Positions 7,997 to 53,522 of a stretch of DNA of 64,000 nucleotides are shown here, piece by piece. The notes beneath the pieces are model-generated. The model did not search any database. It saw nothing but the letters and a program-made list of their open reading frames with translations, and was not told the origin of the DNA. A program made the translations under genes and the position numbers. Source of the stretch: Candidatus Roizmanbacteria bacterium RIFCSPLOWO2_01_FULL_35_13 (GTDB taxonomy: Bacteria > Patescibacteriota > Microgenomatia > UBA1406 > GWC2-37-13); NCBI GenBank assembly GCA_001789635.1, contig MGAF01000026.1, forward strand, positions 5,055 through 69,054, read 5' to 3'. Every line of letters starts with the position of its first letter. Position 1 is the stretch's first letter.

Positions 7997-8056
7997 TCAA
8001 TAACCTTTAATGTTTTTTCTACAGACTTTATTATCAACTGGGCACCACAAGTAAGC

Positions 8057-8954: not shown

Positions 8955-9003
8955 AAGTTATAAACTTCGTCCTTCGATTACTTCGACTTCGCTCGGTATA
9001 AAT
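8955..9003 (-). repeat. Copy of the AAGTTATAAACTT..TCGAAGGAC.. element family
   Basis: AAGTTATAAACTTCGTCCTTCGATTACTTCGACTTCGCTCGGTATAA aligns with the reverse complement of 1351-1392. Confidence 0.55.
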
Positions 9004-9006
9004 TTA

Positions 9007-9231: not shown

Positions 9232-9237
9232 ATAAAA

Positions 9238-9501: not shown

Positions 9502-9617
9502 ACCTACTATTTTACTATAAAGCAGTAAGAACTTAAAGATCAAAATAGAGGATGATATTTTTATTACTTCAGATTTTCGAGGGTGGTCAGGATGTCGTCG
9601 CCTTCAGGACACTCTCC

Positions 9618-34430: not shown

Positions 34431-34814
34431 TTATTTAAGATGAGATTTTGTCTTTGAAAGGAGTTTTTCAACATATTCGATGAATTCTTTAGCTTTTTTA
34501 TAGATTTTTTGAGCAAGTTCTTCTTTATAAGTGTGGACTGTAAGATTCCTGTCTTTAAGAAATTCAAACCAAACAGAAGGATCATCAATTAATCCCAGTT
34601 TTGCAGCTTCGCGGATTATAGTTTTTACCCCATAAACAGCTATGTCATTTTCGCGCTCAATTGACTGCATTACTTTCCAACATAGTTCAAAAGTAAACTC
34701 AAAGCGTTGGATGGTCGCATCCTGATTAATAATGGTAGATGGGAGATTGGAGGCCTCTTTCAATCGTTTAAAAGCTTTCTCCAAATCTTCATATTGGGTT
34801 TGTAGTTTTGTCAT
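34431..34814 (-). CDS. HEPN-type nucleotidyltransferase substrate-binding protein (HI0074 family)
   Basis: Typical helical protein (RFEFTFELCWK), paired with the MNT gene upstream. Confidence 0.7.
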   Translation of the reverse strand: MTKLQTQYEDLEKAFKRLKEASNLPSTIINQDATIQRFEFTFELCWKVMQSIERENDIAVYGVKTIIREAAKLGLIDDPSVWFEFLKDRNLTVHTYKEELAQKIYKKAKEFIEYVEKLLSKTKSHLK

Positions 34815-34815
34815 A

Positions 34816-35109
34816 TCAGTTCAAGTAAATTACTTTTTGTTTAGCAACTTTTTTAAATTTATCTGACACATCGGAAAAATCTACTACGTCTACAGTGTAG
34901 GGTATGTCGGATTCTTCGAAAAGTTCTTTTATCTCTTCGATCGTTGAGCCTCGAATTTTTCTTTTTGTTTCAATACCAATATCTATATCGCTGAACTTCA
35001 TAGCTTTGTCCGAAGCTCTTGACCCAAAGATAAACACCTTGTCTCTTTTAGGATCGAGAAAGCGGAAGACGATTTTATTTATTTGCCCAATAATATTTTT
35101 ATTTAACAT
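34816..35109 (-). CDS. minimal nucleotidyltransferase (MNT) partner
   Basis: GSRASDKAMKFSDIDIG (GS..D.D motif). Confidence 0.8.
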   Translation of the reverse strand: MLNKNIIGQINKIVFRFLDPKRDKVFIFGSRASDKAMKFSDIDIGIETKRKIRGSTIEEIKELFEESDIPYTVDVVDFSDVSDKFKKVAKQKVIYLN

Positions 35110-35156: not shown

Positions 35157-35435
35157 ATGAAGCCTTATTTTATTTGGGATTATGATCTGACAGAAAAAGA
35201 CGTAAAAAAAATTCTGAAAGACGGTAACGAGTTTAGCCGAATCTGGTTGATATCAAGGATATTGGAAAGTGCCAAATATGAAGACGTCTGGAAATATGTC
35301 AAACTTGATGAAGTTTTACAAATTTTCCCAAGACTTAAATTGAAAAAACCGATAAAAAACGCCTGGCTGAATGCCTTTAAAGCTTGGGGAGTTAATAACA
35401 ATATAAATGACAATTATCACACCATCACAAAGTAA
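35157..35435 (+). CDS. hypothetical protein, likely partner of the downstream AbiEii-like gene
   Basis: 29-bp overlap with the next ORF. No motif recognised. Confidence 0.4.
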   Translation: MKPYFIWDYDLTEKDVKKILKDGNEFSRIWLISRILESAKYEDVWKYVKLDEVLQIFPRLKLKKPIKNAWLNAFKAWGVNNNINDNYHTITK

Positions 35436-36063
35436 ATTTTTAGAGAGTTTTTTTTCTACCCATTTAAAAAAAGATTTTTTTTTAACAGGTGGAACCGCTT
35501 TAGCCGAATTTTATTTTCATCACCGTAAAAGTGAAGATATAGACCTTTTTACTATAAATCAAGATATTAGTTTTGACGGCGTAAACGCTGAAATTCTCAA
35601 TATTATAAATAGTTATAAGGCTCATATAGAGCATCAGGTTTTTGGTCCTACCTTTCTTCAATATATTTTGAAAATTGGAAATGATTCTCTGAAGATTGAT
35701 ATGGTTAAAGATACTCCGCCGCATTTTGGGGAAGTAAGAGTTTTAGAGAGTTTACGGATTGATTCGCTAGAAAACATTGCTGTCGGAAAACTGTTAGCGC
35801 TATTTGGACGAGCCGACACTAAAGATTTTATAGATATATATTTTCTTTTAGAGATTGAGAAAAAATTTACTCTGACTGAGCTTTTCAAGATGGCAAAAAA
35901 GAAAGATTCTGGCTTAGATGAGTTTTATCTGGCAGAAATGATGACAAAAGCGACTGATATAAAACTTTTCCCAAAAATTCTCAGACCTTTTGATAAAAAA
36001 AAGCTGGTCAAATTTTACCTCGATCTTTCCGACAAACTCTTCAAAAAAATAAAACCTGTATGA
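35407..36063 (+). CDS. nucleotidyltransferase AbiEii/AbiGii toxin family (DUF1814-like)
   Basis: FFLTGGTALAEFYFHHRKSEDIDLF. Confidence 0.7.
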   Translation: MTIITPSQSKFLESFFSTHLKKDFFLTGGTALAEFYFHHRKSEDIDLFTINQDISFDGVNAEILNIINSYKAHIEHQVFGPTFLQYILKIGNDSLKIDMVKDTPPHFGEVRVLESLRIDSLENIAVGKLLALFGRADTKDFIDIYFLLEIEKKFTLTELFKMAKKKDSGLDEFYLAEMMTKATDIKLFPKILRPFDKKKLVKFYLDLSDKLFKKIKPV

Positions 36064-36135: not shown

Positions 36136-36816
36136 CTAACTTTTTCTCTTCAGGAAAAATTTAATAGCTAATGTCGTTGTAATATGAATTACTAATGATA
36201 ATAATAAATAAAAATTAATCTGTGTTAAAAATGCAACAACCGATTGTCTTAAATTGTCATTCCGGAAAACAATATCAATTTTTATATCAAATACATATAT
36301 TATGCCGCCAATTAATATGAGGACAGGTGGAATGTAAATAAGATCAATAAGATCCTGCTTTGACGAAAACATGGTAGAGGAAATTACAAAGATTAAATAA
36401 ACAATTAATATGTTTAGAAATACATTTTGATTGGGAAATAATTTCCAACCAAAAAGAGCAAGAAAAAATAAGAGACCAACAAATAAAGGCGCTAAACCGA
36501 CTAATACTCCTCTGAGAAAATCTTTCTTCTCATATAATACATGGCCTAATTTCAGATGATTGTCTTTCCACTCCGGAAATACTTTTATATCCCTTACTCT
36601 TAAAAATAAAATAATCGCTGCAAAAAAATGTGCCAGTTCATGTATGGTGGTGCCGGGAAAAAAGATAAAAGAAATTATACTGAATACTGTTTTATCATTT
36701 TTAAAAAATCTTCTGAGAAAAAAGAATAGTTGATTAATAGTGTTTCTGGAAATAAAAAAAAGCGTTATTAGAAGTAAGATTAAAACCCCGAATTGTAATG
36801 GTAGATAACTTAGCAT
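36136..36816 (-). CDS. polytopic membrane protein with HExxH (putative metalloprotease)
   Basis: GTTIHELAHFF within a hydrophobic context. Confidence 0.4.
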   Translation of the reverse strand: MLSYLPLQFGVLILLLITLFFISRNTINQLFFFLRRFFKNDKTVFSIISFIFFPGTTIHELAHFFAAIILFLRVRDIKVFPEWKDNHLKLGHVLYEKKDFLRGVLVGLAPLFVGLLFFLALFGWKLFPNQNVFLNILIVYLIFVISSTMFSSKQDLIDLIYIPPVLILIGGIIYVFDIKIDIVFRNDNLRQSVVAFLTQINFYLLLSLVIHITTTLAIKFFLKRKS

Positions 36817-36983: not shown

Positions 36984-37361
36984 ATGGATACGAATGTAAA
37001 AACCGACGACTCCAGTAATGCGGAAGAGTTCAGAAAGATGATAGAAGTGGAGGTTCTTAAAATTATTAAGGATCTGGCTGAAAATGGATTGACTCCTAAA
37101 GAAAGAATTCAGGAAATAGCCGAATCGACTCTTAATTTAATAAAACCAGGAATGAATATAGAGGAGCTGTATGGGAGTGCGGTAAAGTTGGATGATCGCC
37201 ATTCCGAACTGGCTCCGGTAGTGTTTAAAATCATGAAAGAATATGAGGAGAAGTTTGAAAAAAAAGCCTTGGTGCATGTAAGCCAACTGGTTAAGGAAGG
37301 TAATTTTGACAAAGCTCAGGATATGGTCAAAAAAGTTTTACTATTTAAGTCGTTAAGTTAA
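36984..37361 (+). CDS. hypothetical helical protein, first gene of the giant-protein operon
   Basis: ORF with ATG at 36984; its stop lies 1 nt before the next start codon. Confidence 0.5.
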   Translation: MDTNVKTDDSSNAEEFRKMIEVEVLKIIKDLAENGLTPKERIQEIAESTLNLIKPGMNIEELYGSAVKLDDRHSELAPVVFKIMKEYEEKFEKKALVHVSQLVKEGNFDKAQDMVKKVLLFKSLS

Positions 37362-37362
37362 T

Positions 37363-38256
37363 ATGACAGCAATCGTAAATCCCGAACCGGCCGTAGCATT
37401 ACAAACTACTCCCGAGGCGCGTCCTGCGGGTCGTTTCACTCCATTGAAGGAAAGATTACAGGGATTATTTTTTCGACAAGATAAACAGAAAGTTATAACT
37501 ACGGCAGAAGCGGGAATTAAAAATGGCAGAGATGAGTCAAGAAGAGCTTTACTTTTAATCAGAGATTTTATTCAGGGAGTAAGAATAAAGGAAAATATAA
37601 GTAGTGTGGTGGCAATGATGGATAGTAAATTGCGGGTATACGAGTCAAGCAATGATCCTAAAGACAAAGTATTGGGTTTGTCTTTGAAAAAAGCAATAAG
37701 ACAGTGGCAGATCGCACAGCTTAATTCACTCGTCAAACAAAAACAAAATGCAATCGATAAGGGTGACCTTATCCCATCACAAAAGGCAGAACTTGAGTCG
37801 GAGATGTCCGATCTGCAAAAACAGATTAACGGCAGTAAAGAATCTGAATCCGGAGAAGCAAAAGGAGGAATTGTTCAGGAAATAAAAGTACTGGATGAAA
37901 CTAAAGCTAAAATTGGAACAGATATTCCCGATCCATTCACAGAGCTCGCTAACTTATTGGAAGTTCCGGCCGAGATGATGGCGGAAAATCCCCTCGATAC
38001 CGTGGTTAGAGTGATGCAGCTTAGGTCAAAGGATGTTAAAGACGAAAGACAGTTTGCCGATTATTTAAAGAAAAAAGGAACACCCAAAGATGTTATAGCC
38101 GCTTACCAGAATGCTCTGCGGGTATTGAAAGGAGAGCCGACCAAGGCTGAAAAATCCAAAAAAATAATCTTAGTCGGCAGCGGCTTGGCCGCTTTGTTTA
38201 GTTTTATACTGTTGTGGAAAGGGGCAACCGGTGAAAAAAATCAAGCGTATGCTTGA
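37363..38256 (+). CDS. hypothetical tail-anchored protein
   Basis: Long helical/charged region and a single C-terminal hydrophobic helix, IILVGSGLAALFSFILLW. Confidence 0.55.
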   Translation: MTAIVNPEPAVALQTTPEARPAGRFTPLKERLQGLFFRQDKQKVITTAEAGIKNGRDESRRALLLIRDFIQGVRIKENISSVVAMMDSKLRVYESSNDPKDKVLGLSLKKAIRQWQIAQLNSLVKQKQNAIDKGDLIPSQKAELESEMSDLQKQINGSKESESGEAKGGIVQEIKVLDETKAKIGTDIPDPFTELANLLEVPAEMMAENPLDTVVRVMQLRSKDVKDERQFADYLKKKGTPKDVIAAYQNALRVLKGEPTKAEKSKKIILVGSGLAALFSFILLWKGATGEKNQAYA

Positions 38257-38372
38257 TTTTTATTTTTAGTTCGATGATAATGAATTAAGTTTCGTTTATG
38301 CCTTGTAGCCCGATTAAGTTCGGAGTGTAGTGGTATTAATTCGAGTTATTTATTGTTATATGAAAAAATAAA

Positions 38373-41300
38373 ATGGGTGAACCTAACTTTAACCAGTCTG
38401 GAGAAATTACCCAACCTAATTTAGGCAAACCGGAAAACAAATTCTGGATAAATTCAAAAGGTGAAAAGATAATTGCAGAAAAAGGCAAGGTACCTACATT
38501 AGTGGATGTTTTTAATCACCGCTATCAACAGTATGAGCAGAAAATGAAAAAGTTGTATGAAAAAGCAGAACTTGCTAAGCAAAATCCAAATGATCCTGAA
38601 AAACAATTAACTCAAAGGGAATTTCTTCAGCTTTTTAAATTTGAAAATACAAAAGCCGGTAAAAGAGAAGTTCTGGATAAAAATAAAAAGATAATCTCTC
38701 TCCCTTTAATTGATCCTAATAGTCCGGATCCGAGCAACCCTTTAAAAATTGAGTCTCAAGAAGGCCCGGCAGCGGATGGGTTAATAGATTTTCTTAAAAC
38801 TGAAATAACACCCACTCAAAAAGATATACAAAAAGTAATCGAAGATCTTACATTTCTTGATCAAAATACCGAAGATTTTAATAAATTACACGCTGATAAA
38901 GTCAAAGACCCTAAATTCTATAAAGCAAGATTAGATTTTGAGGCTCATGCTATTTCAGAATTTCGAGCACGTATGGGTTTGTCACCCGATAAAAATCTTG
39001 ATTGGGAGTTGGCAGAAAGAATCTTAAGTGAAAGAAAAGAATTGACATTTAAAGTCGAAAGAAATGAGCCTCAAAAAGTAGAAGTTATCCAAGCAAAAGA
39101 GATCCCAAAGGTAGAGAAATTAACCAAGTCTGATGTCCGAAAAGTATTCCAGGAATCTTTTGCAGAATACAGCAAATCGATGGAGAGGTTACTTAAGGAA
39201 CCTGATCCTGGTAGGTTAACGGCTGATGAAAGAAAAAGGATTGAAGATTATCAGGAAACTAAAAAAGCATGGGAGGATCTGCAAAATAACAAAAGAAAAG
39301 AAATTACCTGGAAAGACAAAAGAGGGATTGATCATAAAACTACCCAAAACATTCCCATAGGCGGAATGATAGAAAATTTAAGGGACGAGATAGTTAATCT
39401 TCAACTTAAAGTAAATGAAATAGGCAGTAAGGATGGTAAAGAACTGGATAGGCTTAAAAAACAAATAAAGAAACATGAAAAGAATTTGTCGATTCTTGAA
39501 GAGAGCAGTATTCCTGCAAGCAGAGTTAAGGGATCTGAAAAATATACTGTCACAAATCCGAATGACCCACAGGAGCATCTGAATATTTTGCTGAAAAATC
39601 AGAGAGCTTTAAAAGGTAAAAAAGTATTAATCCTGTCGGAAGAAGATACAGCGGTAAAAACCGCAGAAAAAAGATCTGCAGCTTCAAAAAGAGTTAAACC
39701 TGCCCCATCCGGTCAAGGAGTTGGTCTTCCGGCACCAATAACATCGGATGCAGCAAGACAACAGTTAGAAGATATTTCCGGGAAACCACCTTCAACAACT
39801 GAATCAAGTGAAGACTTACCTCCAACAGTTGAAACCGGTAAACCCGCTCCGATGCCAGAGGTACCTGAGTTAAAAACGCTGGCAAAAAAAATCAGAGTGT
39901 CGTTTGTAGCGGATGATGTTACATCAGAACAGAATGTAGCCCAGGTTGCACAGCATCTCCGAGCAGGGGATAAACCGACTTTTACAGGAAAAGATAAATG
40001 GCTGATGCCATTGCTTCATCCTGTGACTTATATTAAAAACGCCATACAAAATACGTATCTTGATAACTCTTTTGATCACCGGGAAACTCTATTCGTCATG
40101 CAGATGACGCAAGTTGGGCGAAAGCTTGCAGGGCTTGACGCAAGCGTATCACTTAATCTCAAAAAGGAAGTTGTCCAGGAAGCTAAAAATAAAGGGAAAG
40201 AAATAGTTAAAAAAGCAACAGGTTGGCAAGGGTTTAAGTTTGGAGTAAGGAATTTCTTTGCATCGTTCCTTGCGCCTGTTCAAACAGCCGAGATGCAACA
40301 GGCTTTGCAATGGTTTGATCAAAATGGAAAACAAATGATTGAACAATCTAAACAGATAAGCATAGCAAGTCAGACTTCTTTAGCCGACAGATTTTCACTC
40401 GAGGGAAAAGACGAAAATATCATTTCAGAAAAATTGGGAGAGAAAAGATACAGCTTGAATACTTTGATTATCGATCCGACTTTGCAACAAACTATTCAAG
40501 GGCAACTGAAAGATTTTGTTAAAGTATACGCAACAACTAATCTGAGTGATGAGGATTTTATAAAAAAAGTTAACCTCTATTATCATTCGGATATCCTTAA
40601 AAAAATTCCACCGGAAAAGGTAAAGGAAATTGACGGTTTACAAATTTCGCAAAATCTGCTTCGGGTTGCACAGGAGATGAAGCGTGAACCGGATGTCGGA
40701 CGAGATGAAAAGAAAACTTTGTATCAAAGATACCAGGATGAAAAAGCCTGGGATGATTTGGAATTGGATATTGTTGTTGGTAAAGGTAGAGCAGAGGCAG
40801 TTAGAGGGGATATTGAACTTTCAAGATCGGAAAGAAATTTGTTGAGATTGATTCAAAAGCGGGATTATCGGACTGATCCGAATGTTAAAGCAGGTGCAAT
40901 CTATGATGAGACTGCGATTAATTCCCAACTAGGTTACACGGCATTATATACGGCTTCATTTTTAACAGGATATGGTATTGGAGCCGCTAAATTCGGCAGA
41001 GGTACGATTCTAAAATTTTTTCATTTTAATCCGCTTATAACAGGAATTGCAGCAACCGGACTAACGGCAGCAGCCAGGGAAGGCGCAATTGGATCGTACA
41101 AGGGAAAGTTGTATGGATTGGGAGGAAGGACAGCCAAGGAATATGAGCAGATATCGAGAGAAACTGCACAGGGAAGAGAGGCAATAGCAGGTGCAAATCG
41201 CCGTAAAGAGTTTGAATCGGCATTGATGCAGCAAAAATCGGCAACAGAGTTGACTGAGGCTATTAATAGTTTTGTAAATAAGGAAGGAGAGTTGAACGAG

Positions 41301-44300
41301 CAGGATCGGAAAAGTTTGGTTATGGCAATAGCCCATGTCAAAGCAAGAATGAAATTGACCGACACGTCTTCAATCAAGGAAAAGGGATTGTTAAAAGTCA
41401 GAATGACGCAAAATCTGATCGGTTATACCGAAGATAAAAGAACCGAGGAGTTTACGCAGTTAACTTCTTCTATTTTACAAGGATTAAACAGGCTAGGAGA
41501 TTCTCCCGAAGCGTTGGATCTTGATCGAGCGCAGTCATTGATGGAAGCCCAATTAACAGTTGGAAGCGCCAGACAAAAAGTGGAGATGGAAGTAGCACAG
41601 AGATTGAAGATTAACTCTGCTGAAGCGCATGAACTGACGGATAAATACCTTGAAACATTAAATCTGCACATAGGTGAAGATGAAAAAAATGTCTCGATGA
41701 ACAGAGCGGCAAATAATTTAGCAAAATTATCCTGGAAACGATTTGGCACTTCTCTTGCAACCACTGCGATTGCCGCACCGATTCTTGGTCTTGAAGCAAA
41801 ATTATTGTATGAAGGAGCTGCAAATGTTTTTGGTACAGGTGTGGACATAGGTCAGACTATAGTAACCGGAGAACCGGCAGGAATTATTAAAGATGTAACT
41901 ACCTGGAAACAGGATTGGGATAATGTGATGGATGGCGAGATACCGATGAAGATCGATTCTACAACAGGTCAAGTTGTTTCGGATTTGTCACCACTTGAAG
42001 CGACTTTAATAAAAGTCGAAAATTATTTTGAGCCTCCGATTTTAGAAAAAGGGCATGACGTGAATATTGACGGTGTTACCGTAAGATTGCCAGAGCATTG
42101 GGAATATCGGCCGGTTGATCTGGTGGGTAATGACGGAGTTTCTGACCATGATGTAATCGTTGATCTGCGGGAAAGAGAGGTAATAGTGGATCTGACAGGT
42201 CTGACAGTTTACGCAAAGGATACGGATGGTGATGGAGTACAAGAGCTTGTTGCCTATGATAAAAGTGGACAGACAGTTACTGATTTTTTTGAGAGTCATG
42301 GAGTGAATGTCAAAGTCGGACCGGTTGTAACTCAGACTGATATTGGCACAAGAGAGATGGGAGAAACCAAAGAGTCAGTCCATGTAGTTGAACAAACTGA
42401 AACGATTGCAGCATTCGGACCCGAAGGAATTTTCACCAATCATAGTACTGAAATCGGTGGTGGAGGATCTTTGGGTAGAGAATGGGTAAGTACTTTAAAG
42501 GATTATAAAAATCCATTATATATGTGGAAAGATGCAGAAGGTAATCCGGTTGTTGACTTTACCGGCATGGCAGGCAGCGAATATAAAAATACCGGGGTTG
42601 ATATAAATCATCCGGTTGGTGTTGATAACTTTTTAGGAAAATTACAGGAAAGAACCGGGGAAGCTGTCGGTCCCGGTGAACATTTTGGAGTTGTATTTTC
42701 AACCGCCAATGCTCATGAAGGAATCGCAGTTGTAGACGGTGATAATAATGGTCTTATTGAATTAAAGGAAGGATCTGCAGATTATTCGATGAAGTGGGAT
42801 GGTGCACACTATGTTAAAACCCAGTTAGACCTGGAAGATCTGGGGAAATCACTAGCTGCAAATGACGAATGGAATAATCTTCCTCCCGGGAGAGTATATT
42901 TGGAAAATAAAGAATTGGTTAATATGGATGGGTTAAGTCAGGTAAATTTGCTGGCGCCGGGACAATCGGGATATGGAACGATTGAGGTAGCAAAGTTTGG
43001 AGACAATATGACAGAAGATTTTAACGGAGTTCATCCTACTCTTAAGGTATATTCAACGGTTCGGGGAACAGGATCACTACATGATGTTGTTGAAACTGAG
43101 CAAGTTGAAGTCAGGGACGATGATGATGCTGGCGAAAGAATACCGGTTGAAGTCGAAAAGAAAACCACAACATTTATCTTAGAACCCAGTAATAAAGATG
43201 AGACTGGTGAAGGTAGTCTTGATCTTGATTTAAGAAAGATAGGAAAAGAAATCAGTGAAGGAGTCGGTGAATGGGTTGATCGGAATGAAGGCGCAATTCC
43301 CTTGATTCCAATTGTTTCAAGACAGAATATCGAGCAGAGTATTGGCGCTGCTGTGGCTGTAGCGCGAAGTGCTACAGCGGAACAACCGCCAGCAGGCGGA
43401 ATTGATACGGAAAAAGATAAAAAAGAAAAAGCTAGATGGTTGGCTGCACAAAGGGAATTGGAACAAGATCTTCAAAAAGTAAAAGAAGATCCTACAAAGA
43501 AAGCGGATTTTAAAGATAAATGGGGTGTTTCAAGCACAGATGCTGAAGAAGATAAAAAAAGAACTACTGACGCTTATTATGTAATCAGCCATTTTGGCAA
43601 AGATGTAAAAGACAAATATGAAGCTGAAGCATTAAAAGAGGAATCAATCGAGGATCAAGCATTTATGCAAAGCATGGCCCAAATACTCGATCAAAATAAG
43701 ACTGAAATGGCAAATGTTGCCCAAAAAATTGAAACTGAGAATTTAGACGACTCAACTCCCGAAGGGAGAACTGAAATTGCAGAGATTGTCGAAACGGAAT
43801 CAGGTAAGAAAATCAAGAAAGAAAACTTTATACATTATCTTGAAATTCAAAATAAAATAAAACAAAAAGCCATCGAAAGAAGAGCGGCCGAGGAAAAACA
43901 GATGACAGAGCAGGTTAAAAAATGGGAAACTGAACCGGTCGAATCCGCAGAGTCTTCAGTAAAGCCTCCGCAAGAAGATGAAGAAAAAAAGTCAGATGAA
44001 GTTTTGAAAAAAGAGTATTTTGATCGTAAAAATAAAGCCTTAAGTGATTTAGCAGACGTTAAGAATAATACGATGGGTATAAAAGAATTTGAAGATAAGT
44101 GGGGTATTCAGGGGCAATTTGAAATTTTATCCAAGGCAAATGATGATCCTCGATCATTTGTTAAAAGCATATTTATAGCAAGAGAACTAAAAAGACGGTT
44201 CGGTCGCGATCAACAGGATTTAGTCGAGAGTCAAATAGTTGAACAATTACCCAATGAAAGAAAAAATGCATATATAAAAGTAGAAGAATTATTTAATAAT

Positions 44301-45857
44301 AATCAAAATACTTTTAATTCGGCTATTACCAAATATAAAGAAGAAGTCCGGAAAAGAGGAGAATCTTTAACTTCAATTGAACGTGAGTTGATTTATACAA
44401 AAACATTTCTAGAATTTTTTAAGGATGAATTATCTGAGCAGGAAATTTTGGAACATGATAGAGTTTCAGGTTTGATAATGGAAGCTAATGTAAAAAAGCA
44501 AGTAGAGATAATGAGCGAGTTGAATGGAAAAATTGATCAGTGGGAAGCTGAATCCGCAGAATCTTCAGTGACTCCGCCAAAAGTAGATAAAGAGAAATTA
44601 AAAGAAAAAATTAGAATAGTCAATCGTGATGTGTTTGAAAAAGCAGGAAAAAGGAGTAAAGAAGAGATGACTAAATTAGTTGACGAAGTTTCTAAGGCCC
44701 ATTATGAAATGCTTGTCCAGGGTAAGGGAAAAATAGGAAACACAATTGATGAAACAGAGAAAAAAGGTTATGAAAAAATAGTTTGTGAAGGATTTGTGAC
44801 ATATATTCCAAAAGGCGCAGGAGAGTTAGTTGTTGTTGGTGATTTGCATGGTGATTTTGCAGCTTTCGAAAAAATAATAAATAAAAATCAATTTGTAGAG
44901 AATATGGAGTCTGACTCTCCTTCAAAGGTAATTGTTTTTGAAGGTGATTATCTTGATCGCGGTGAAAAAGACGTACAACTAATGGAGGCTTTACTTGAGC
45001 TTAAGAAAAGATATCCAAATAATGTGGTTTTAATGAAAGCAGATCATGAAGTACGAAAAGGAGTAGTTAGCGATCAAACATATTTTGATAAGACAAAAAA
45101 ACAATACGGTGACGAAACGGTTTTTGATGAGTTGAATAATAAAATATTTAGTATTTTGCCTAGGGCCGTATTCTGTGGTAATGGGGTAGTTATGGCACAT
45201 GGTGGTCCTTTATATTACGATTTAGATTTAAGACAAATGGCGAGTCTTAGAGATAGTGGAGGAAATAATGTGGCTACTTCTGCTTTTGATGAGGTGATGA
45301 CCTGGGCAGATCCTCAACCAATGACAGATGCTGAAATTGATTTAATTCAAAAAGAAAGCCTCAAATATATAGAAGAGTTGGATAAGGCAATTCCTTTGGC
45401 ACAAGCTGCATCTGATAAAACTATAGATTTCCGCGGTCAAAAATGGGATCTAGATCACCTAGAAAGAATTAAGAAAAGAATTGAAACTGCCCCCAAAAAT
45501 GGATTTTGGTTTAATCCGAGAAGAGTTAATGTAAAAGGAAGAAAAGCAGATGTAATTGATGCGGCCTTGAATAATACAGTTATATATTCAGAACAAGGAT
45601 TAGAATATTTTTTAAATAAAGTTGGAGGTAAAGTATTAATTAGAGGTCATCAAGTAACAGAAAAAGTTAACGGTGGAAATCCTTTCTCAAAAAATATTTT
45701 GTGGACGATCCATTCAACAGGGGAAGGGAGCCCAGACAGTGCATATACAAGTCAGGATATGAGTGAGGAACTAAACCCAAGTTATGCAGTTTTTGACAGG
45801 AATGCAGATGTTGCTCTAATTGATCCGGCAAAGAATATAGTTCCAGTCTGGAATTGA
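38373..45857 (+). CDS. giant multidomain protein (2,494 aa) with a C-terminal PPP-family metallophosphatase domain
   Basis: Uninterrupted 7.5-kb ORF. C-terminal motifs GDLHG, GDYLDRG, ADHE (GNHE position), AHGG and RGH. Central hydrophobic hairpin. Confidence 0.85.
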   Translation: MGEPNFNQSGEITQPNLGKPENKFWINSKGEKIIAEKGKVPTLVDVFNHRYQQYEQKMKKLYEKAELAKQNPNDPEKQLTQREFLQLFKFENTKAGKREVLDKNKKIISLPLIDPNSPDPSNPLKIESQEGPAADGLIDFLKTEITPTQKDIQKVIEDLTFLDQNTEDFNKLHADKVKDPKFYKARLDFEAHAISEFRARMGLSPDKNLDWELAERILSERKELTFKVERNEPQKVEVIQAKEIPKVEKLTKSDVRKVFQESFAEYSKSMERLLKEPDPGRLTADERKRIEDYQETKKAWEDLQNNKRKEITWKDKRGIDHKTTQNIPIGGMIENLRDEIVNLQLKVNEIGSKDGKELDRLKKQIKKHEKNLSILEESSIPASRVKGSEKYTVTNPNDPQEHLNILLKNQRALKGKKVLILSEEDTAVKTAEKRSAASKRVKPAPSGQGVGLPAPITSDAARQQLEDISGKPPSTTESSEDLPPTVETGKPAPMPEVPELKTLAKKIRVSFVADDVTSEQNVAQVAQHLRAGDKPTFTGKDKWLMPLLHPVTYIKNAIQNTYLDNSFDHRETLFVMQMTQVGRKLAGLDASVSLNLKKEVVQEAKNKGKEIVKKATGWQGFKFGVRNFFASFLAPVQTAEMQQALQWFDQNGKQMIEQSKQISIASQTSLADRFSLEGKDENIISEKLGEKRYSLNTLIIDPTLQQTIQGQLKDFVKVYATTNLSDEDFIKKVNLYYHSDILKKIPPEKVKEIDGLQISQNLLRVAQEMKREPDVGRDEKKTLYQRYQDEKAWDDLELDIVVGKGRAEAVRGDIELSRSERNLLRLIQKRDYRTDPNVKAGAIYDETAINSQLGYTALYTASFLTGYGIGAAKFGRGTILKFFHFNPLITGIAATGLTAAAREGAIGSYKGKLYGLGGRTAKEYEQISRETAQGREAIAGANRRKEFESALMQQKSATELTEAINSFVNKEGELNEQDRKSLVMAIAHVKARMKLTDTSSIKEKGLLKVRMTQNLIGYTEDKRTEEFTQLTSSILQGLNRLGDSPEALDLDRAQSLMEAQLTVGSARQKVEMEVAQRLKINSAEAHELTDKYLETLNLHIGEDEKNVSMNRAANNLAKLSWKRFGTSLATTAIAAPILGLEAKLLYEGAANVFGTGVDIGQTIVTGEPAGIIKDVTTWKQDWDNVMDGEIPMKIDSTTGQVVSDLSPLEATLIKVENYFEPPILEKGHDVNIDGVTVRLPEHWEYRPVDLVGNDGVSDHDVIVDLREREVIVDLTGLTVYAKDTDGDGVQELVAYDKSGQTVTDFFESHGVNVKVGPVVTQTDIGTREMGETKESVHVVEQTETIAAFGPEGIFTNHSTEIGGGGSLGREWVSTLKDYKNPLYMWKDAEGNPVVDFTGMAGSEYKNTGVDINHPVGVDNFLGKLQERTGEAVGPGEHFGVVFSTANAHEGIAVVDGDNNGLIELKEGSADYSMKWDGAHYVKTQLDLEDLGKSLAANDEWNNLPPGRVYLENKELVNMDGLSQVNLLAPGQSGYGTIEVAKFGDNMTEDFNGVHPTLKVYSTVRGTGSLHDVVETEQVEVRDDDDAGERIPVEVEKKTTTFILEPSNKDETGEGSLDLDLRKIGKEISEGVGEWVDRNEGAIPLIPIVSRQNIEQSIGAAVAVARSATAEQPPAGGIDTEKDKKEKARWLAAQRELEQDLQKVKEDPTKKADFKDKWGVSSTDAEEDKKRTTDAYYVISHFGKDVKDKYEAEALKEESIEDQAFMQSMAQILDQNKTEMANVAQKIETENLDDSTPEGRTEIAEIVETESGKKIKKENFIHYLEIQNKIKQKAIERRAAEEKQMTEQVKKWETEPVESAESSVKPPQEDEEKKSDEVLKKEYFDRKNKALSDLADVKNNTMGIKEFEDKWGIQGQFEILSKANDDPRSFVKSIFIARELKRRFGRDQQDLVESQIVEQLPNERKNAYIKVEELFNNNQNTFNSAITKYKEEVRKRGESLTSIERELIYTKTFLEFFKDELSEQEILEHDRVSGLIMEANVKKQVEIMSELNGKIDQWEAESAESSVTPPKVDKEKLKEKIRIVNRDVFEKAGKRSKEEMTKLVDEVSKAHYEMLVQGKGKIGNTIDETEKKGYEKIVCEGFVTYIPKGAGELVVVGDLHGDFAAFEKIINKNQFVENMESDSPSKVIVFEGDYLDRGEKDVQLMEALLELKKRYPNNVVLMKADHEVRKGVVSDQTYFDKTKKQYGDETVFDELNNKIFSILPRAVFCGNGVVMAHGGPLYYDLDLRQMASLRDSGGNNVATSAFDEVMTWADPQPMTDAEIDLIQKESLKYIEELDKAIPLAQAASDKTIDFRGQKWDLDHLERIKKRIETAPKNGFWFNPRRVNVKGRKADVIDAALNNTVIYSEQGLEYFLNKVGGKVLIRGHQVTEKVNGGNPFSKNILWTIHSTGEGSPDSAYTSQDMSEELNPSYAVFDRNADVALIDPAKNIVPVWN

Positions 45858-45888
45858 CTTTAGTTAAAAATTTAATTATTCTATCAAT

Positions 45889-46401
45889 ATGGCAGATCAG
45901 AATCAAAATACACAACAGCCAAATCAGCAACCGAACCAATTGACAACCCAGCCGAGTGAGAGGGCGATCAAGGACCAGATTGCCTTGATAAGACACATTG
46001 ATGATCTAATCAAACTGAGGAATGATCCGCATGTTACACCGGAAAAGCTGCCGGCAGTCAAGACTCTGCTTCTCAAGGAGATTAACGAATGGATCAACAG
46101 GCATCTGATTACCAAGCTGGATGATCAAGGTCAGATCGAACTGGAAAAACTGTTGAATAGTAATGAGTCGGACGAAGAACTGGATAAATTTTTCAGCCAG
46201 AAAATTCCCAATCTCCAATCAGAAATTGCCTCGGTATTATTCAACTTCAGAACCGCATATCTATATCCGGTAAGAGAAAGAATAGCAGCAGAGGCTAAAG
46301 CAAAAACTGCTCAAAATCAAACAACCCAAAATAATGAAAGTTCTCAAAATGATTTTTCTGACGTAGGACCGCCTGCTCCTATTGTCAATAAGTCTAATTA
46401 A
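45889..46401 (+). CDS. hypothetical small helical protein with Q/N-rich ends
   Basis: ORF 31 bp after the giant gene. The core ..ELEKLLNSNESDEELDKFFSQKIPNLQSEI.. resembles small helical proteins I recall from CPR genomes; family unverified. Confidence 0.5.
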   Translation: MADQNQNTQQPNQQPNQLTTQPSERAIKDQIALIRHIDDLIKLRNDPHVTPEKLPAVKTLLLKEINEWINRHLITKLDDQGQIELEKLLNSNESDEELDKFFSQKIPNLQSEIASVLFNFRTAYLYPVRERIAAEAKAKTAQNQTTQNNESSQNDFSDVGPPAPIVNKSN

Positions 46402-46406: not shown

Positions 46407-48401
46407 TTATTGTATTGTGACATCCAGTGTTTTATCTTTACTATTTATACTTAGATCCAGGTTTTTCAAGACTCTCCTACCTTTTATTTGTTTCTGTAAA
46501 TATAAACGAAGTTCTTCCTTTATTTTATATTTCCTTAAATTGTCTGCAACAAGACTTTGAAAGTTATCTGGTTGAACCGAAATACCAGAGGGCACTATAT
46601 CCTTATTATCATCAGAGTTTTTAAACTCAATATCTATACCGATATTTATAGGCATCAACAAAAATTTACCTTCAGCTCCGATTTTACCTTTTACTGTTCC
46701 CTTGCCTGAGTTACCAGATTGGTCTATCGCAAAATTTGTTTTTTTTATATCATCGGTAATTTGTGGATTAAATTTTTTAGCAGCGGGGTTTTTGGATTTT
46801 ACTGAATCTAATATTGCCTTAGGTAATAAATCAAGAAGCCCTGCTTCAGTTATTGAAATATTTTGGATTTCATCTGGTTGACCTTTATCTAAAATACCCA
46901 AAATTTCTTTTAAACTATTTATTTTTACTATTTTTGGTTTTTCAGCTAATGGTGTAGTTTCTAATTGCGTGGGTTTAGAAGTTGGTTGTTCGATTTTGGC
47001 AAATTGATCTGTACTATTAGTAGATACAGTTTTAAATGTTCCAGCCGGAACTTCATCTACTTCACTTTCGTCAACCACTTTTTGAAAATGCTCTTCACTT
47101 AAATAAAATTTATCGCCTTCTTTATCATAGTACAACCCCTGTTCAATAAGAAATTCTGGAGTAAGCTCAGGTTCATTATGATACGCATTATATTTTTTAC
47201 TAATTTCCGCAAGAGTATAACTAGGTATCCAATGGGCCTTTTGTTTTTTGAATTTATCAGCAAATAGATCTGATTGTTTTTGAATACTTTGTGTAGACGT
47301 TTCAGGCGTTATTGGTAATGAAAATTTAATGACTGGGAATCCATCATAGTTTGGAATTAATTCACCATGTTCTTCTGCTATTTTTTTATTTTCATCAGAC
47401 AAAGAGTTGTAATCAATAATAATATATCCGGTATGACCGATATCTTTAGCATTTGCTGAGGTAGATAATGTCCTTATATTTAAATCCCAAAAACGTTCAG
47501 CTGCAAAAACGAGTAGAGGCTCAACTAATTCCCTGATTTGTGACCGTTTTGTAATCATTAAATTTCTAGATTTTTCTATAGCTTTAATTTCTCCAAATGG
47601 AACATCTTTAAGTTCTTGTTTTATATTTTCAGGAATAGATTCTAATTCCAGATTGTCTTTTTTAGTAGTTTGAATTTCTTGAGCTTTTTTAAATAGTTTT
47701 TCTAGATGTGGTTTGTGGATATCTTGAACTGTATTAATTTCTTTATTAGCTTCTGTAACATATTTTTTTGGATCACCTTTGAAATTTATCCAGTGAGTTA
47801 TATATTTTTGGATTATTTCATCGCCTTCTTCACCGAAGAATTTGCGGCTGAAAAGTCTGATGCCATCGATGTCCCGGTTATATGCTTCAAAGTCGAAGTT
47901 GCCGCTGGAAGCATAACGTTCGATAATGTCATCGGCAAATACTTCATATTTTGTACCCTGGTTTACAACATCAAAATATTTTTTATAGTATGTTATTACT
48001 TGTTCAGTTGTAAAATCAGATGCTTCATCTAAACCCAAAAAATTTTGAATCTGTTTTTTTAGGGGTTTGATCCTATTAAATCTTTCAGAAGCGTCGCTTG
48101 CCCATTCTGTTACGGCCGTAGTAAGATGTTCGCTCGCTACACCATTTTTTTTACGTCTTTCGTCATCAGATACTTCATTTAAGATTTTTAAATTATATTT
48201 TTTGCGGTCAGTTTGAATATCCTGTTCTGTAATAGCCGCCACATCTTTTTTATTAGGATCTAAAATAGGGTGGAATTTATCGAAGTTACTTACCGTCAGA
48301 AGAATACGTGATCCAAGAGAATCGTATGAAGGTTGATAGAGTATTTCTTTAGCTTTTGGCTGAGCCGCCGGATTCTTTATTGTTACTGGTACTTCTTCCA
48401 T
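46407..48401 (-). CDS. hypothetical protein (664 aa), convergent on the operon end
   Basis: Long ORF; no motif, signal peptide or TM segment recognised. Confidence 0.6.
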   Translation of the reverse strand: MEEVPVTIKNPAAQPKAKEILYQPSYDSLGSRILLTVSNFDKFHPILDPNKKDVAAITEQDIQTDRKKYNLKILNEVSDDERRKKNGVASEHLTTAVTEWASDASERFNRIKPLKKQIQNFLGLDEASDFTTEQVITYYKKYFDVVNQGTKYEVFADDIIERYASSGNFDFEAYNRDIDGIRLFSRKFFGEEGDEIIQKYITHWINFKGDPKKYVTEANKEINTVQDIHKPHLEKLFKKAQEIQTTKKDNLELESIPENIKQELKDVPFGEIKAIEKSRNLMITKRSQIRELVEPLLVFAAERFWDLNIRTLSTSANAKDIGHTGYIIIDYNSLSDENKKIAEEHGELIPNYDGFPVIKFSLPITPETSTQSIQKQSDLFADKFKKQKAHWIPSYTLAEISKKYNAYHNEPELTPEFLIEQGLYYDKEGDKFYLSEEHFQKVVDESEVDEVPAGTFKTVSTNSTDQFAKIEQPTSKPTQLETTPLAEKPKIVKINSLKEILGILDKGQPDEIQNISITEAGLLDLLPKAILDSVKSKNPAAKKFNPQITDDIKKTNFAIDQSGNSGKGTVKGKIGAEGKFLLMPINIGIDIEFKNSDDNKDIVPSGISVQPDNFQSLVADNLRKYKIKEELRLYLQKQIKGRRVLKNLDLSINSKDKTLDVTIQ

Positions 48402-48572: not shown

Positions 48573-49178
48573 ATGGACAAAATTATGCAATATCTGAAAT
48601 GGGATAAATTTAGGGATACCTTGCTGGATAAAGAAATACTTTATTTTAGTCTTTATGATTTAGAAACCTTATTCAAGGCGCACTCAAAAAGCCTTAGTAG
48701 ATTTATTTCGCGCAAAGCACAGGAGGGCAAGCTAACCCGGCTTAAAAAAAATTTATACTGCCTTTCGGAGAAGATACCCGGTGACTTCACTCTAGCCAAT
48801 ATTGTTTATCAACCATCCTATGTATCTTTGGAGTCGGCCCTTTCCCATTATTCGATTATTCCAGAATCTGTCTACGCCATTACCTCGATCACAACAAAAC
48901 CTACAAGGGAGTTTGGCATTACCGGAAGGAGTTTTTACTATCAGACTATTAAAAAGTCGGCTTTTTTAGGTTATGAGCCAACGGTTATCTTTAATGAGAC
49001 GGTTTTATTGGCCACAAAAGAAAAAGCTTTAGCTGATTATCTGTATTTTGTTAGCAGAGGGACAAAAAGTCCCAATGATAGAACAGATTGGAGAAGAGTT
49101 GATATAAACAAAGTCAAATCATATTTAAGAAAAGATTTTAATCTTGCAGAGTTAAAAATTCAAAAACTGATTCCGTGA
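48573..49178 (+). CDS. AbiEi-type antitoxin/transcriptional regulator
   Basis: N-terminal wHTH-like region (LSRFISRKAQEGKLTRLKKNLY). 4-bp overlap with the AbiEii gene. Confidence 0.65.
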   Translation: MDKIMQYLKWDKFRDTLLDKEILYFSLYDLETLFKAHSKSLSRFISRKAQEGKLTRLKKNLYCLSEKIPGDFTLANIVYQPSYVSLESALSHYSIIPESVYAITSITTKPTREFGITGRSFYYQTIKKSAFLGYEPTVIFNETVLLATKEKALADYLYFVSRGTKSPNDRTDWRRVDINKVKSYLRKDFNLAELKIQKLIP

Positions 49179-49879
49179 TTGATCGCGAGTTCATCAGAAG
49201 GTTAAGCGTAAAGTGGCAGACTTCGGAAACCAATGTTGCCAGAGAATATCTCCAGCATAATTTTTTAAGAATTTTTTACCAGCAAAAAAAGTCGCATCAA
49301 ATATTTTTTAAAGGCGGGACTGCTTTGCGATTGGTGTTTGATTCGCCTCGATTTTCCGAGGATCTTGATTTTAGTTCACTTGTGACATCGGTCAAAACAA
49401 TTGAGGATCTTCTAGGAGAAACGTTGCTTCAACTAAGTTATCAGCAGATAAGTTTAGATATGACAGAAGCAAAATCGACATCAGGCGGTTATCTATTTTA
49501 TGCAAAGACGATACTCTTTGATAAAGAAATAAATCTTAAACTTAATTTTGTCATAAAAAAAAGCGCAGCTAATCAAACGGAAACGGTTAAATCAATTTTC
49601 ATGTCGCCCTACAGTCTGGTTGTGTTAAGGACACGAGAGCTAATAAGCGAAAAGGTTGAGGCTTTTTTGACCAGACATAAGGTCCGGGATTATTTTGATC
49701 TTTATTATGTTCTGCGGGCGAATCTTGAACGTAACGTAATATTGGCACGACGCGTAGAGATTATCAAAGTTATAAATTCTTCAAAACTTAACTTGGGTGA
49801 ACTAAAAGTTTTTTTACCCCGAACTTTTCTGCTGCTGCTTAAAGATCTAAAAAATAGCTTGTTGCGAGAACTACGGTGA
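49175..49879 (+). CDS. AbiEii/AbiGii nucleotidyltransferase toxin
   Basis: FFKGGTALRLVFDSPRFSEDLDFS. Confidence 0.75.
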   Translation: MIDREFIRRLSVKWQTSETNVAREYLQHNFLRIFYQQKKSHQIFFKGGTALRLVFDSPRFSEDLDFSSLVTSVKTIEDLLGETLLQLSYQQISLDMTEAKSTSGGYLFYAKTILFDKEINLKLNFVIKKSAANQTETVKSIFMSPYSLVVLRTRELISEKVEAFLTRHKVRDYFDLYYVLRANLERNVILARRVEIIKVINSSKLNLGELKVFLPRTFLLLLKDLKNSLLRELR

Positions 49880-52800: not shown

Positions 52801-53522
52801 TAATAGGTCATATTGGTGAAGTGGACCATAAATTTGGAGGTTTTAACTGAATCCAAAAGTTCGATATTCAGATTGCTGCAGCCTTTAAAAGTTTTATAAG
52901 CGGTTTCGCTGTCCAGAATTACGCTGCCTCCCTGAGAAGATAAAAAGAAAATATTAAAAAGATTTTTCACTCCGAGTCTTTCAATAAAAAACAACATCAT
53001 CGTGTCCGAGAGTTGTATTACCAGTAAGACTATACTTGCAGAAAATGTGACATATAAAAGAAGAAGACCGATTTTTAAAATAAGAGGCCAGACTTCAATT
53101 TTAAGATTAAAATTTGACCGTTGGCCGATAATAATTCCCAAACCAAAAATTGCAACAATTAAGATAAGAAAAAAGTAAACTATATTTCTGGCAAACGACC
53201 AGACAGATAAGATAACCGGATGATTATCAATAGACCGGTGGGTAAGAGTCCAGTATAAAAACTGCCGTGATCTTTCTCCGGCTTTTCCTAATGCTGTAAC
53301 ATCCGGATCGCTGACCCACAGATTCTGCGATTTATTTCTCTCCCAGTCTGCAAAACTGGCTGCGCAGGTATAGTTAATTCCGGTAATTAACGGGCACCAA
53401 GCCCCTAAACAGGGTTCATAGGCAGGAGTAGGAGTTGCTGGTATAGCTTGTGCCGATACAGGCCGTATCAGCGGAATAATAAGAAAAAAGAGGAAAATAA
53501 AAAGTAAAAGAATTTTTTTCAT
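49893..53522 (-). CDS. large polytopic membrane protein (1,209 aa) with a signal peptide, about 8 TM helices and a long repeat-rich tail
   Basis: Signal MKKILLLFIFLFFLIIPLIRPVSAQA, Trp-rich TM block, repeats, and a K/E-rich C-terminus. Confidence 0.8.
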   Translation of the reverse strand: MKKILLLFIFLFFLIIPLIRPVSAQAIPATPTPAYEPCLGAWCPLITGINYTCAASFADWERNKSQNLWVSDPDVTALGKAGERSRQFLYWTLTHRSIDNHPVILSVWSFARNIVYFFLILIVAIFGLGIIIGQRSNFNLKIEVWPLILKIGLLLLYVTFSASIVLLVIQLSDTMMLFFIERLGVKNLFNIFFLSSQGGSVILDSETAYKTFKGCSNLNIELLDSVKTSKFMVHFTNMTYYMVGIMFILRKVVLWLLLFVSPFLALLMPFVFIRNAGWIWIGVFFQWVFYGPLFGLFLGGLAAIWGSPSHIPYNFDFSRANKIEGFVYPTTINILYGGPAQKLDLLNSSNYTDTYAEYIIALVMLWAVTIFPWWLLRIFRDYCCDGIYATKNILLSMYDQMRGGSTPFGPGPVPIPAPSGLSTGTAMQIPRDDRMRTVTKLETTEEIKRTRTEDITRSMQFSASKLTDIARFETNKQNNETITKNINFLQNPMKAETPTERQKYMNIRSELFSRAVKEDKTAKQVLSSISTSKVEQLQRREEMLKTTTQSVPVTHLVSVKVNIPTEKVQSVTSSFMQSVSNNNNMTQSISQITQTPQTKVQSVLNSFSQNMSQPVSNILQNVANQTGVTKEKVSSIIQNTTNVVRQSQLVDKIATKEQVTTQNVEKILSSISTAVTDHEKETVTTSISTQTGIPVEKVNSITKTLLSNASTDNTFVKELEKQTNLPASQVKTILNSFTQNINQPITTSVNNIASQTKVEKEKVREVINTAVNNLRQSQLVNNIAVKEQVTVERVEKILSTVATSLTREAPITQSMINSVSKSQTFVKQIEKQTNLPISQISNILNTYTQNLNQPLETSINNISTQTGVTKEKVREVIQTTLSAIPSTSTGEKETVVNMIASQSGLPVEKTTIVMKTLLSSISSDRTFIKQLEQQTNLQAGQVTKILNVFTENINQPMSTSINNISTQTGIEKEKVTRVINTAVNNLKTSKDTVRQILQKENIKEKDLQKIVNNQIPMVTEPEKHVESMISVPASVSLDEYEQVKKMWKDQYVRGEVPVSDIIKSRDQWVGQDVVFITNVLNKLVSDSPEIKQQGLDDIGYILPIFLINNLKGEQLMVYLKAKLEAAKEVEELQTKEQEIKEEVEEKKEEEFIDVDKPKAEEQEKVMEMKEEMEIKEPEEKSAESKPTRENAQNPAGEESEAKKPDENKK
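50480..51900 (-). repeat. Nested coding repeats: about 14 copies of a ~27-aa unit organised in ~105-110-aa super-repeats
   Basis: The AGATTAGTYTGTT cores recur at about 50715, 51023 and 51350. Peptide units follow Q-T-G/N-x-x-x-E/Q-K/Q-V-x-x-[IV]-[IL]-N. Confidence 0.8.

Follow-up and report, generated by a model that had tools for sequence, protein, structure and literature searches.

In the framework of Zhang and Aravind, polymorphic toxins are built from modules, with variable enzymatic ends that move from one delivery scaffold to another. Single-chain translocating toxins, in which an enzyme head is combined with a central hydrophobic helical hairpin, are represented by the large clostridial toxins, the diphtheria toxin with its T domain and the colicin-type pore domains. 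In the Candidate Phyla Radiation (CPR; Patescibacteria), a type IV secretion system (T4SS) has been described that is chromosomal, MPF-FATA-like and devoid of a relaxase and, in Microgenomatia, rich in VirB2 arrays (PMC12102498, PMC11665869). Southlakia, the only species in which this was tested, cannot do without the system, for which no substrate is known (PMC11665869, PMC12102498). Its function has been called 'completely unknown', and phosphatases, kinases or large proteins are not mentioned in that literature (PMC12102498, PMC11665869). Giant fast-evolving CPR proteins are commonly taken as adhesins (PMC11665869). On the side of the hosts, Actinobacteria detect Saccharibacteria by means of a Ser/Thr kinase; its phosphorylation of an FHA protein leads to Esx-mediated defence (2026 preprint, PMC13622651). 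Here we describe a locus on a 64-kb segment of the Candidatus Roizmanbacteria chromosome (contig MGAF01000026.1; a transfer-messenger RNA gene is present), referred to below as the window, which is built around a giant protein of 2,494 aa with a PPP-type Ser/Thr phosphatase domain at its C-terminus.

The gene for the giant (38373..45857, + strand) encodes a protein that is publicly recorded as OGK40762.1 and annotated as a hypothetical protein. A word-indexed search with the whole sequence gave a single relative, P0001, with 25% identity over aa 512-1317, and a scan of genome contigs with the core alignment returned the P0001 locus alone, which was already known. A word-indexed search with a 10-sequence alignment of the core detected no relatives, the candidates being swamped by low-complexity words. 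Relatives were obtained in an exhaustive search, in which a two-sequence profile of the core region was compared with 1.84 billion cluster representatives. As a result, 76 relatives were identified, of which 50 had E values <1e-30. With few exceptions their length is 1,400-4,143 aa, and the core is found at differing distances from the N-terminus, with an identity of 24-37% between members. By multiple alignments the conservation was traced to ~1,150 aa, corresponding to aa 503-1665 of the window giant. The giants constitute a previously undescribed family with a common core and variable ends, and not the idiosyncratic mosaic that an earlier note, made from the letters of this stretch alone, had seen in the window protein. 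We found no paper describing the giant family, its neighbourhood or DUF5663. The proteins are already public as hypothetical proteins. Pfam, NCBIfam, PADLOC and PHROGs recognized only the phosphatase at this locus, in line with the statement of the earlier note that no described counterpart was known.

Concerning distribution, the named members come from Roizmanbacteria (two), one bacterium of the 'Parcubacteria group' and two metagenome-assembled genomes labelled Gammaproteobacteria and Weeksellaceae. The two last-mentioned genomes encode P0001 (loci L001/L010, 'uncultured Gammaproteobacteria') and P0043 (locus L024, 'Weeksellaceae'), and their gene content (the giant and the D, E and HTH_17 genes described below) and G+C content are CPR-like. 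Since both properties match those of CPR loci on both contigs, the two labels are probably due to mis-binning. The named family members are mostly CPR bacteria.

The conserved part of the window giant starts with a basic helical core domain (aa 503-1135; 39879..41777, +), supported by the profile search and by a model calculated with AlphaFold2 (AF2). In this model, which was based on 28 family members, the pLDDT was ~90 over most of the ~630-aa helical part, low at a Gly-rich hairpin and patchy over the beta region. The hairpin is a Gly/Ala-rich hydrophobic helical element within the core (aa 838-912; 40884..41108, +), recognized by alignment, and its position and glycine pattern (YGG..aaG ... 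vGG..g....a.lKEtG) are kept across the 28 members. A long helix with a third, weakly hydrophobic segment (KRG...AP...) is found at aa 1109-1165 (41697..41867, +; residues 607-663 of the model). It is followed by a conserved, acidic, beta-rich domain (aa 1166-1665; 41868..43367, +) that ends in the motif P.P..R.NIE.S. In the window giant this domain has a net charge of -51 and an isoelectric point of 4.4, and beta strands were predicted with a pLDDT of 75-85 at model residues 726-820. The motif scan placed a DTDGDG calcium-loop-like motif at aa 1283 (42219..42236, +). The acidic, beta-looking region that the earlier note had described with this motif is borne out, residues 1201-1700 being acidic and predicted to form beta structure. 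In about half of the 28 aligned members, D.NGDG...(D/E)L is present at the same position, a motif that we take to recall the calcium loops of FG-GAP or dockerin domains. When 42 giants were examined, the helical core was net positive in 93% and the beta domain net negative in 100%.

The hairpin and the third segment had been noticed before. Their positions are conserved, but they are only weakly hydrophobic: KD19 hydrophobicity values are 1.2-1.34 in the window giant, whose best value of 1.34 lies below the usual transmembrane threshold of ~1.6, and 1.2-2.1 across the family. Relatives reach 1.6-2.1 at the same two positions, the third segment up to 2.09, and in many members the third segment has a Lys or Arg in its middle. 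The term 'membrane-tethered', used earlier for the locus, remains an inference from weakly hydrophobic and partly charged segments. Similarity to known folds was examined with Foldseek, the matches being judged against an E value of 0.05. The core model had no match in PDB (best E 0.4) or among the viral folds of BFVD (best E 0.06). Profile searches of the core against PDB sequences also gave no match, and no Pfam family covers the core.

The regions on both sides of the core are variable. The N-terminal region of the window giant is K/E-rich (aa 1-440; 38373..39692, +), with one weak family match only, and leads into a Pro/Ser/Thr-rich linker (aa 441-502; 39693..39878, +) with 12 Pro residues in the tile 401-500. 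A Pro-rich stretch ahead of the core is part of the family consensus. Of the K/E-rich helical sequence of about 850 aa described in the earlier note, it is ~440 aa of variable sequence and the Pro-rich linker that can be retained, while what follows is the start of the conserved core. Downstream of the core, self-alignment revealed two tandem acidic helical modules of ~200 aa in a variable region (aa 1666-2075; 43368..44597, +). As had been noticed, they are repeats of one another (19% identity, E 2e-5), and both copies end in ...WE.E..SAESSV.PP. The same module is found, again twice, at the C-terminus of P0011.

The PPP-type head occupies aa 2076-2494 (44598..45857, +) and was identified by Pfam and by motifs. 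The C-terminal phosphatase recognized earlier was thereby confirmed: Metallophos (PF00149), the only Pfam family on the window giant, matched aa 2153-2284 with an E value of 1.2e-13 (52.4 bits against a cut-off of 21.5). PPP motifs are present as GDLHG (2156), GDYLDRG (2191), AHGG (2275) and RGHQ (2424). At the position of the GNH[ED] motif the sequence is ADHE (2223), with Ala and Asp in place of the Gly and Asn, while the His and Glu are kept. The head also holds an insert of ~45 aa. Its nearest solved relatives are the eukaryote-type phosphatases BSU1, PP2A, PP5 and PP1 (E ~1e-10), and its only match in PHROGs was a NinI-like phosphatase. The PPP head is also present in the giant of locus L003 (59% identity) and in P0051, the three PPP-bearing members being 35-59% identical, and KADHE and all other metal-ligand motifs are kept in both. 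As judged from these sequences, ADHE is a clade-specific variant and not a sign of decay. That the variant and the intact metal-ligand motifs are kept in three members suggests that the enzyme may be functional.

We examined 44 giants with Pfam. PP2C_2 was detected in six, SpoIIE, Metallophos, FBPase_2 and HopA1 in two each, and PP2C, Glyco_transf_9 and EF-hand in one each; the remaining giants had no Pfam match. HopA1 was matched only weakly (E 1e-5 to 2e-7; 23.8 bits, cut-off 22.7). When profiles of the PP2C-like, PPP and HopA1-like regions were iterated, the Pfam counts did not rise. About a third of the giants thus carry an eraser of phosphoserine and phosphothreonine (pSer/pThr), namely a PP2C, a PPP/FBPase_2-type domain or a HopA1-like lyase. 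HopA1-family proteins have been demonstrated to be pSer/pThr lyases (PMC9486802), so the three recognizable enzyme types converge on one chemistry. PP2C-like domains lie N-terminal to the core and PPP/FBPase_2-type domains C-terminal to it. Hardly any other family member has a counterpart to the first 500 aa, the tandem modules or the PPP head of the window giant, and the N- and C-terminal ends of the giants are swappable.

Besides the erasers, a module of ~430 aa just ahead of the Pro-rich linker (N-module) is common to at least 24 giants; its profile did not detect the first 500 aa of the window giant. In locus L025, a protein of 1,355 aa (5819-9886, -) that is divergently oriented from the giant joins this N-module to a Ser/Thr kinase domain, and the same is seen in P0074. 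A phospho-writer is therefore found on the same carrier module as the erasers. Second giants without the core, divergent from the core giant, were observed in L015 (2140-9513, -; 2,457 aa) and L024 (2901-9869, -; 2,322 aa). The one in L015 has the same PP2C-like domain as P0009, P0001 and P0040.

The genes surrounding the giants were compared on the contigs of ten family members and in six further metagenomic loci found via the D protein. In the window, the giant belongs to a series of four + strand genes, separated by 1, 116 and 31 nt as the earlier note had stated and the open reading frame (ORF) calls confirmed. Gene A (A125; 36984..37361) encodes a small, acidic, helical protein of 125 aa, or of 132 aa if translation started at an alternative TTG at 36963, and is translationally coupled to gene B (B297; 37363..38256), the product of which is a basic coiled-coil protein of 297 aa. 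The giant and gene D (D170; 45889..46401), for a small, acidic, helical protein of 170 aa, complete the series. The hydrophobicity profiles displayed no hydrophobic stretch at the N-terminus of any of the four proteins. The profile of B297 has one strong hydrophobic segment only, at aa 268-286 (KD19 = 2.04). The absence of signal peptides and the C-terminal tail anchor of the 297-aa protein, both noticed earlier, are confirmed by these results. Two associated genes on the opposite strand had been overlooked: E (E664; 46407..48401, -), for a protein of 664 aa with a family N-domain of ~250 aa and a variable C-terminal part, and M (M226; 36136..36816, -), for a polytopic membrane protein with at least six hydrophobic segments and an HExxH motif. 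This motif, HELAH, lies within a hydrophobic segment and recalls intramembrane metalloproteases.

In all related loci where both genes are present, a D homologue comes immediately after the giant, and the D family is the same whether the C-terminal end of the giant is PPP, PP2C-type or unrecognized. One D homologue had a weak score against DUF5663. The AF2 model of D consists of five helices (pLDDT 65) and had no match in PDB below E 0.05. Homologues of A were found in L012, L015 and L017 (59-66% identity) and in L013 (22%), and those of B in L012, L015, L017 and L011. In three loci the B homologue directly follows A, in L013 A lies downstream of D, and in L011 B is directly upstream of the giant, as in the window. 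The window, L012, L015 and L017 have the A/B pair in the vicinity of the giant, and in the last three a large divergent gene intervenes between the pair and the giant; A and B are tightly coupled to one another and separable from the giant. The synteny test of the quartet proposed in the earlier note is thus positive for D wherever giant and D are both present, and for the 125/297-aa pair, which can be separated from the rest, in four to five loci.

ORFs with the E N-domain, one to three per locus, were present in L001, L003, L006, L009, L011, L015-L019, L022, L023 and L025, in most cases beside D or upstream of the giant and usually convergent with D. The E proteins share the N-domain of ~250 aa and differ in their C-terminal parts. 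One paralogue carries HopA1, and C-terminal pieces of the L001 E protein match the C-termini of the giants P0013, P0010 and P0046. The E N-domain profile matched no part of the giants. M homologues adjoin E genes in two loci, L011 (with an E value of 3e-38) and L025 (1e-30). A, B, D, E and M belong to no family in Pfam, NCBIfam, PADLOC or PHROGs. PDB sequence and profile searches with the N-terminus of the giant and the E, A, B and E N-domain families gave only a compositional match to TolA, and the B-family profile matched an LXG structure with an E value of 0.09 only.

The four genes had been regarded as one operon. A multi-gene unit is real, but probably it comprises two transcription units in one neighbourhood, A/B and giant/D, because B ends in a terminator-like hairpin that has a T-run (38236..38261, +), and this hairpin and a promoter-like site just after it (38253-38281) split B from the giant. 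The position of the hairpin agrees with A-B standing apart from the giant in L012, L015 and L017. At the other end, D (+) and E (-) are convergent, with stop codons 5 nt apart (46401/46407), and stop codons 0-19 nt apart were also observed in L001, L003, L009, L015 and L016. With stops that nearly touch, the transcripts must overlap or use a common bidirectional terminator, and the 3' overlap may bring about antisense coupling.

We also considered whether the 7.5-kb ORF is a chimera, a possibility raised in the earlier note. The identical 2,494-aa protein is recorded on six contigs (NCBI, JGI, ENA and Logan assemblies), the fusion of core and PPP is also seen in two relatives, and repeat scans revealed no DNA repeats or tandem repeats in the locus. 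With these three observations together, a chimeric assembly of the ORF is very unlikely, and this reading was rejected.

One related locus links the giants to type IV secretion. In L025 the genes are ordered CHAP, VirB4-like, TraC-like, PrgI, the N-module kinase protein, giant P0031, D, E, M and four T4SS_pilin genes. P0031 and the window core are 24% identical over 843 aa (E 5e-43). A pilin-like ORF was present at the flank edge in L013. No T4SS homologue was found in the 64-kb window or in the 10-kb flanks of the other loci.

Taking these results into account, we tentatively read the locus as a modular, host-directed effector platform of an episymbiont, a proposal drawn from the genomes of uncultivated organisms to which we give a little less than an even chance. 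The core would act as a delivery, membrane-insertion or docking module, D would be the dedicated partner or chaperone of the giant, and the E proteins would be further cargo recognized via their common N-domain. Dedicated effector chaperones are often small, acidic, helical proteins, and D and A share these properties. The PPP head would remove phosphate from Ser/Thr residues of host-cell proteins. Export would most likely proceed via the relaxase-less Patescibacterial T4SS, which we propose because the L025 giant, D, E and M genes sit between the VirB4/PrgI genes and an array of VirB2-like pilins. The host-interaction or effector reading, raised in the earlier note as one of two, gains support because the ends are swapped between carriers, the paralogues of each locus are polymorphic and one set is embedded in a T4SS cluster. 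The core identity of 24-37% fits the expectation for interface proteins. The sensing of epibionts by host kinase and FHA proteins would provide a motive for eraser effectors. The more specific claim that the giants inject swappable erasers (PP2C, PPP, HopA1-like), along with the N-module kinase, into the host and silence its kinase-FHA threat sensing is one we consider unlikely.

A number of observations weigh against the effector platform. No component has a signal peptide, and the tail-anchored B, which is mostly cytoplasmic, fits an assembly on the cytoplasmic face equally well. T4SS genes are near only two of the ~10 loci with long flanks and are absent from the window. Erasers are on opposite ends in different members, which is awkward if one end only is exported. 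A payload could not be recognized on two thirds of the giants and on the majority of the E proteins, the HopA1 matches are weak, and immunity-like genes that co-vary with the payloads are lacking. Hydrophobicity of the segments is weak, and some of them contain charged residues. Finally, several loci are syntenic with pth, glycosyltransferase and penicillin-binding protein (PBP) genes, which suggests a stably inherited cellular function.

Part of these observations would be explained if the giant were an endogenous phospho-signalling scaffold, attached through the hairpin and the basic helical core to the cytoplasmic face of the membrane of the bacterium itself. Its phosphatases, and the kinase in a paralogue, would then control processes of the producing cell such as synthesis of the envelope, division, pili or the T4SS, with D, E, A, B and M as subunits or adaptors. 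The missing signal peptides, the tail anchor of B and the lack of immunity genes are in agreement with such an arrangement, as is a helical core that is basic in nearly all members, a property suited to a domain lying on anionic lipid. The related loci are found beside housekeeping genes, giant PBPs in L013 and L016 and pth/glycosyltransferase genes in L012 and L017, and the proximity of PBP and phosphatase recalls the Gram-positive pstP-rodA-pbpA-pknB arrangement. The N-module Ser/Thr kinase divergent from the L025 giant could form one circuit with the eraser. On the other hand, erasers that are swapped and placed at different ends, HopA1-like irreversible lyases, polymorphic E paralogues in each locus and a core diverged to 24-37% identity are all unusual for a housekeeping regulator; irreversible pSer/pThr lyase chemistry is known in effectors and in lanthipeptide synthesis, not in homeostatic signalling. 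The strongly acidic beta domain with its calcium-loop-like motif looks extracytoplasmic, no kinase or FHA gene is present in the 64-kb window, and only a few lineages are represented among the named members. We regard the scaffold as the main rival of the effector platform and as somewhat less likely. An envelope-spanning surface or attachment protein, anchored by the hairpin and the third segment and displaying the acidic beta domain and the C-terminal part, would be an adhesin or a structural accessory of a T4SS or pilus, with the enzymatic heads of secondary importance. The D.NGDG motif of the beta domain points in this direction, as do the dockerin/cohesin and pilin genes near several loci and the usual interpretation of giant fast-evolving CPR proteins as adhesins (PMC11665869). 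We nevertheless think it quite unlikely, for the giant lacks a signal peptide, adhesin-type repeats and any adhesin, Ig or cadherin domain of Pfam, the conserved part is mostly a basic helical domain, and PP2C and PPP are cytoplasm-type enzymes without an obvious role on the surface.

Two further explanations concern the surroundings of the locus. Cargo of a mobile element or phage, travelling with its DNA in the manner of polyvalent proteins, is suggested by the modular giant architecture, which resembles that of polyvalent proteins, by an excisionase-like HTH_17/MerR gene near six loci and by a resolvase in L001. However, neither the 50,697 phage records nor the 72,556 plasmid records contained a tblastn match to the core, a scan of IMG/VR viral contigs for D found none, the viral fold search was without a match as described above, the chromosomal pth/glycosyltransferase context is kept in L012 and L017, and the window has no flanking repeats. 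A phage or plasmid polyvalent protein is disfavoured by the blank phage, plasmid, IMG/VR and BFVD searches, and we consider this origin very unlikely. A defence module was part of the other reading of the earlier note, which had placed the locus in an accessory neighbourhood rich in toxin-antitoxin genes; the genes on both sides would suggest a defence or toxin-antitoxin-linked module. The AbiE-type flanking genes are real by profile matches: AbiEii at 35407..36063 (E 9e-17), and AbiEi at 48573..49178 (E 1e-36) paired with AbiEii at 49175..49879 (E 2e-25). A HepT/MNT pair also flanks the locus, and PIN/PhD pairs occur near L015 and L025. Yet none of the proteins of the locus (A, B, the giant, D, E and M) was recognized by PADLOC, AbiE flanks were seen at none of the related loci examined, and toxin-antitoxin genes are common in these genomes. 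The AbiE context is incidental, and a defence module, left unsupported and close to refuted by the blank PADLOC scan and the unconserved flanks, is to us barely credible.

Several features of the surroundings can be added. The first AbiEii gene is preceded only by an ORF of 92 aa (region 35157-36063, +), possibly a truncated AbiEi. The HepT/MNT toxin-antitoxin pair is located at 34431-35109 (-) and a Fic/DOC protein gene at 387-1289 (+); the many toxin-antitoxin-type genes of the window are unrelated to the giant locus. The excisionase-like gene mentioned above encodes an HTH_17/MerR-type protein of 72-85 aa a few kb downstream of the giant in L003, L006, L011, L012, L017 and L024 and is absent from the window. 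Dockerin- or cohesin-domain genes and an S8 peptidase gene lie within 10 kb of the giant in L011, L012, L016 and L017; this proximity may be a coincidence, such genes perhaps being common in these genomes. After the AbiE pair, the window encodes a protein of 1,209 aa (49893-53522, -) with weak repeated HU/Bac_DNA_binding-like stretches. Further downstream (62332-63885, -) is a fusion of 517 aa consisting of VKOR (aa 8-132) and dihydroorotate dehydrogenase (aa 200-501), a combination of redox domains that is unusual where the metabolism is reduced.

How CPR bacteria manipulate their hosts is largely unexplained, and the family bears on this question by providing concrete candidates for substrates of the CPR T4SS and for factors that interfere with kinase signalling in the host. 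Even if its function is cell-autonomous, the core, the N-module, D, the E N-domain and A/B amount to about five protein families that are new, and the giants show an unusual way of building phosphatases. The genomes of such bacteria are estimated at ~1 Mb, of which the system would then take up >1%.

We finally compared the giants with known systems. Like polymorphic toxins, they have variable ends on a conserved carrier and several diverged paralogues per locus, and the same C-terminal pieces occur on the giant core and on E N-domain carriers. Unlike polymorphic toxins, they lack an LXG, RHS, PT-TG, MuF or TPS/filamentous haemagglutinin trafficking domain, none of which was matched by Pfam on the window giant, 44 relatives or 11 E proteins. 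They also lack an immunity gene co-varying with the ends, the downstream gene always being of the D family. Moreover, the payloads are at both ends and are phospho-erasers rather than nucleases, deaminases or ADP-ribosyltransferases. The giants thus resemble polymorphic toxins and effectors but are not members, because neither a trafficking domain nor an immunity gene accompanies them. As for the Patescibacterial T4SS (PMC12102498), the relation consists in an adjacency seen in one or two loci (L025 and, with its pilin-like ORF, L013) and not in the window, and the proteins of the locus do not include any known component of a T4SS.

With the single-chain translocating toxins, the giants have in common a giant single chain in which a catalytic head is joined to a helical domain burying a Gly-rich, moderately hydrophobic hairpin. 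By analogy, the buried hairpin suggests a switch from a soluble to a membrane state. Sequence or fold similarity to these toxins, an autoprotease and receptor-binding repeats are absent, the head can be at either end, and partner genes are obligate. Concerning the catalytic domain, the eukaryote-like Ser/Thr phosphatases of bacteria comprise a PPP family (such as lambda-PP/PrpA) and a PP2C family (such as PstP/PrpC). The window head resembles them in having Metallophos, the PPP motifs and eukaryote-type PPP enzymes as best PDB matches. It differs in making up only ~17% of a chain of 2,494 aa, in having ADHE for GNHE and the ~45-aa insert, and in being interchangeable with PP2C or HopA1-like domains in paralogous giants. 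A functional parallel would be with the phosphothreonine-lyase and phosphatase effectors of pathogens, OspF, SpvC and HopAI1 and the HopA1 family (PMC9486802), which remove phosphate from the signalling proteins of another organism, and HopA1-family domains were matched on two giants and one E protein. Those effectors are small substrates of type III secretion systems that act against eukaryotic mitogen-activated protein kinases, whereas here the carriers are giant proteins and the presumed host is a bacterium or an archaeon.

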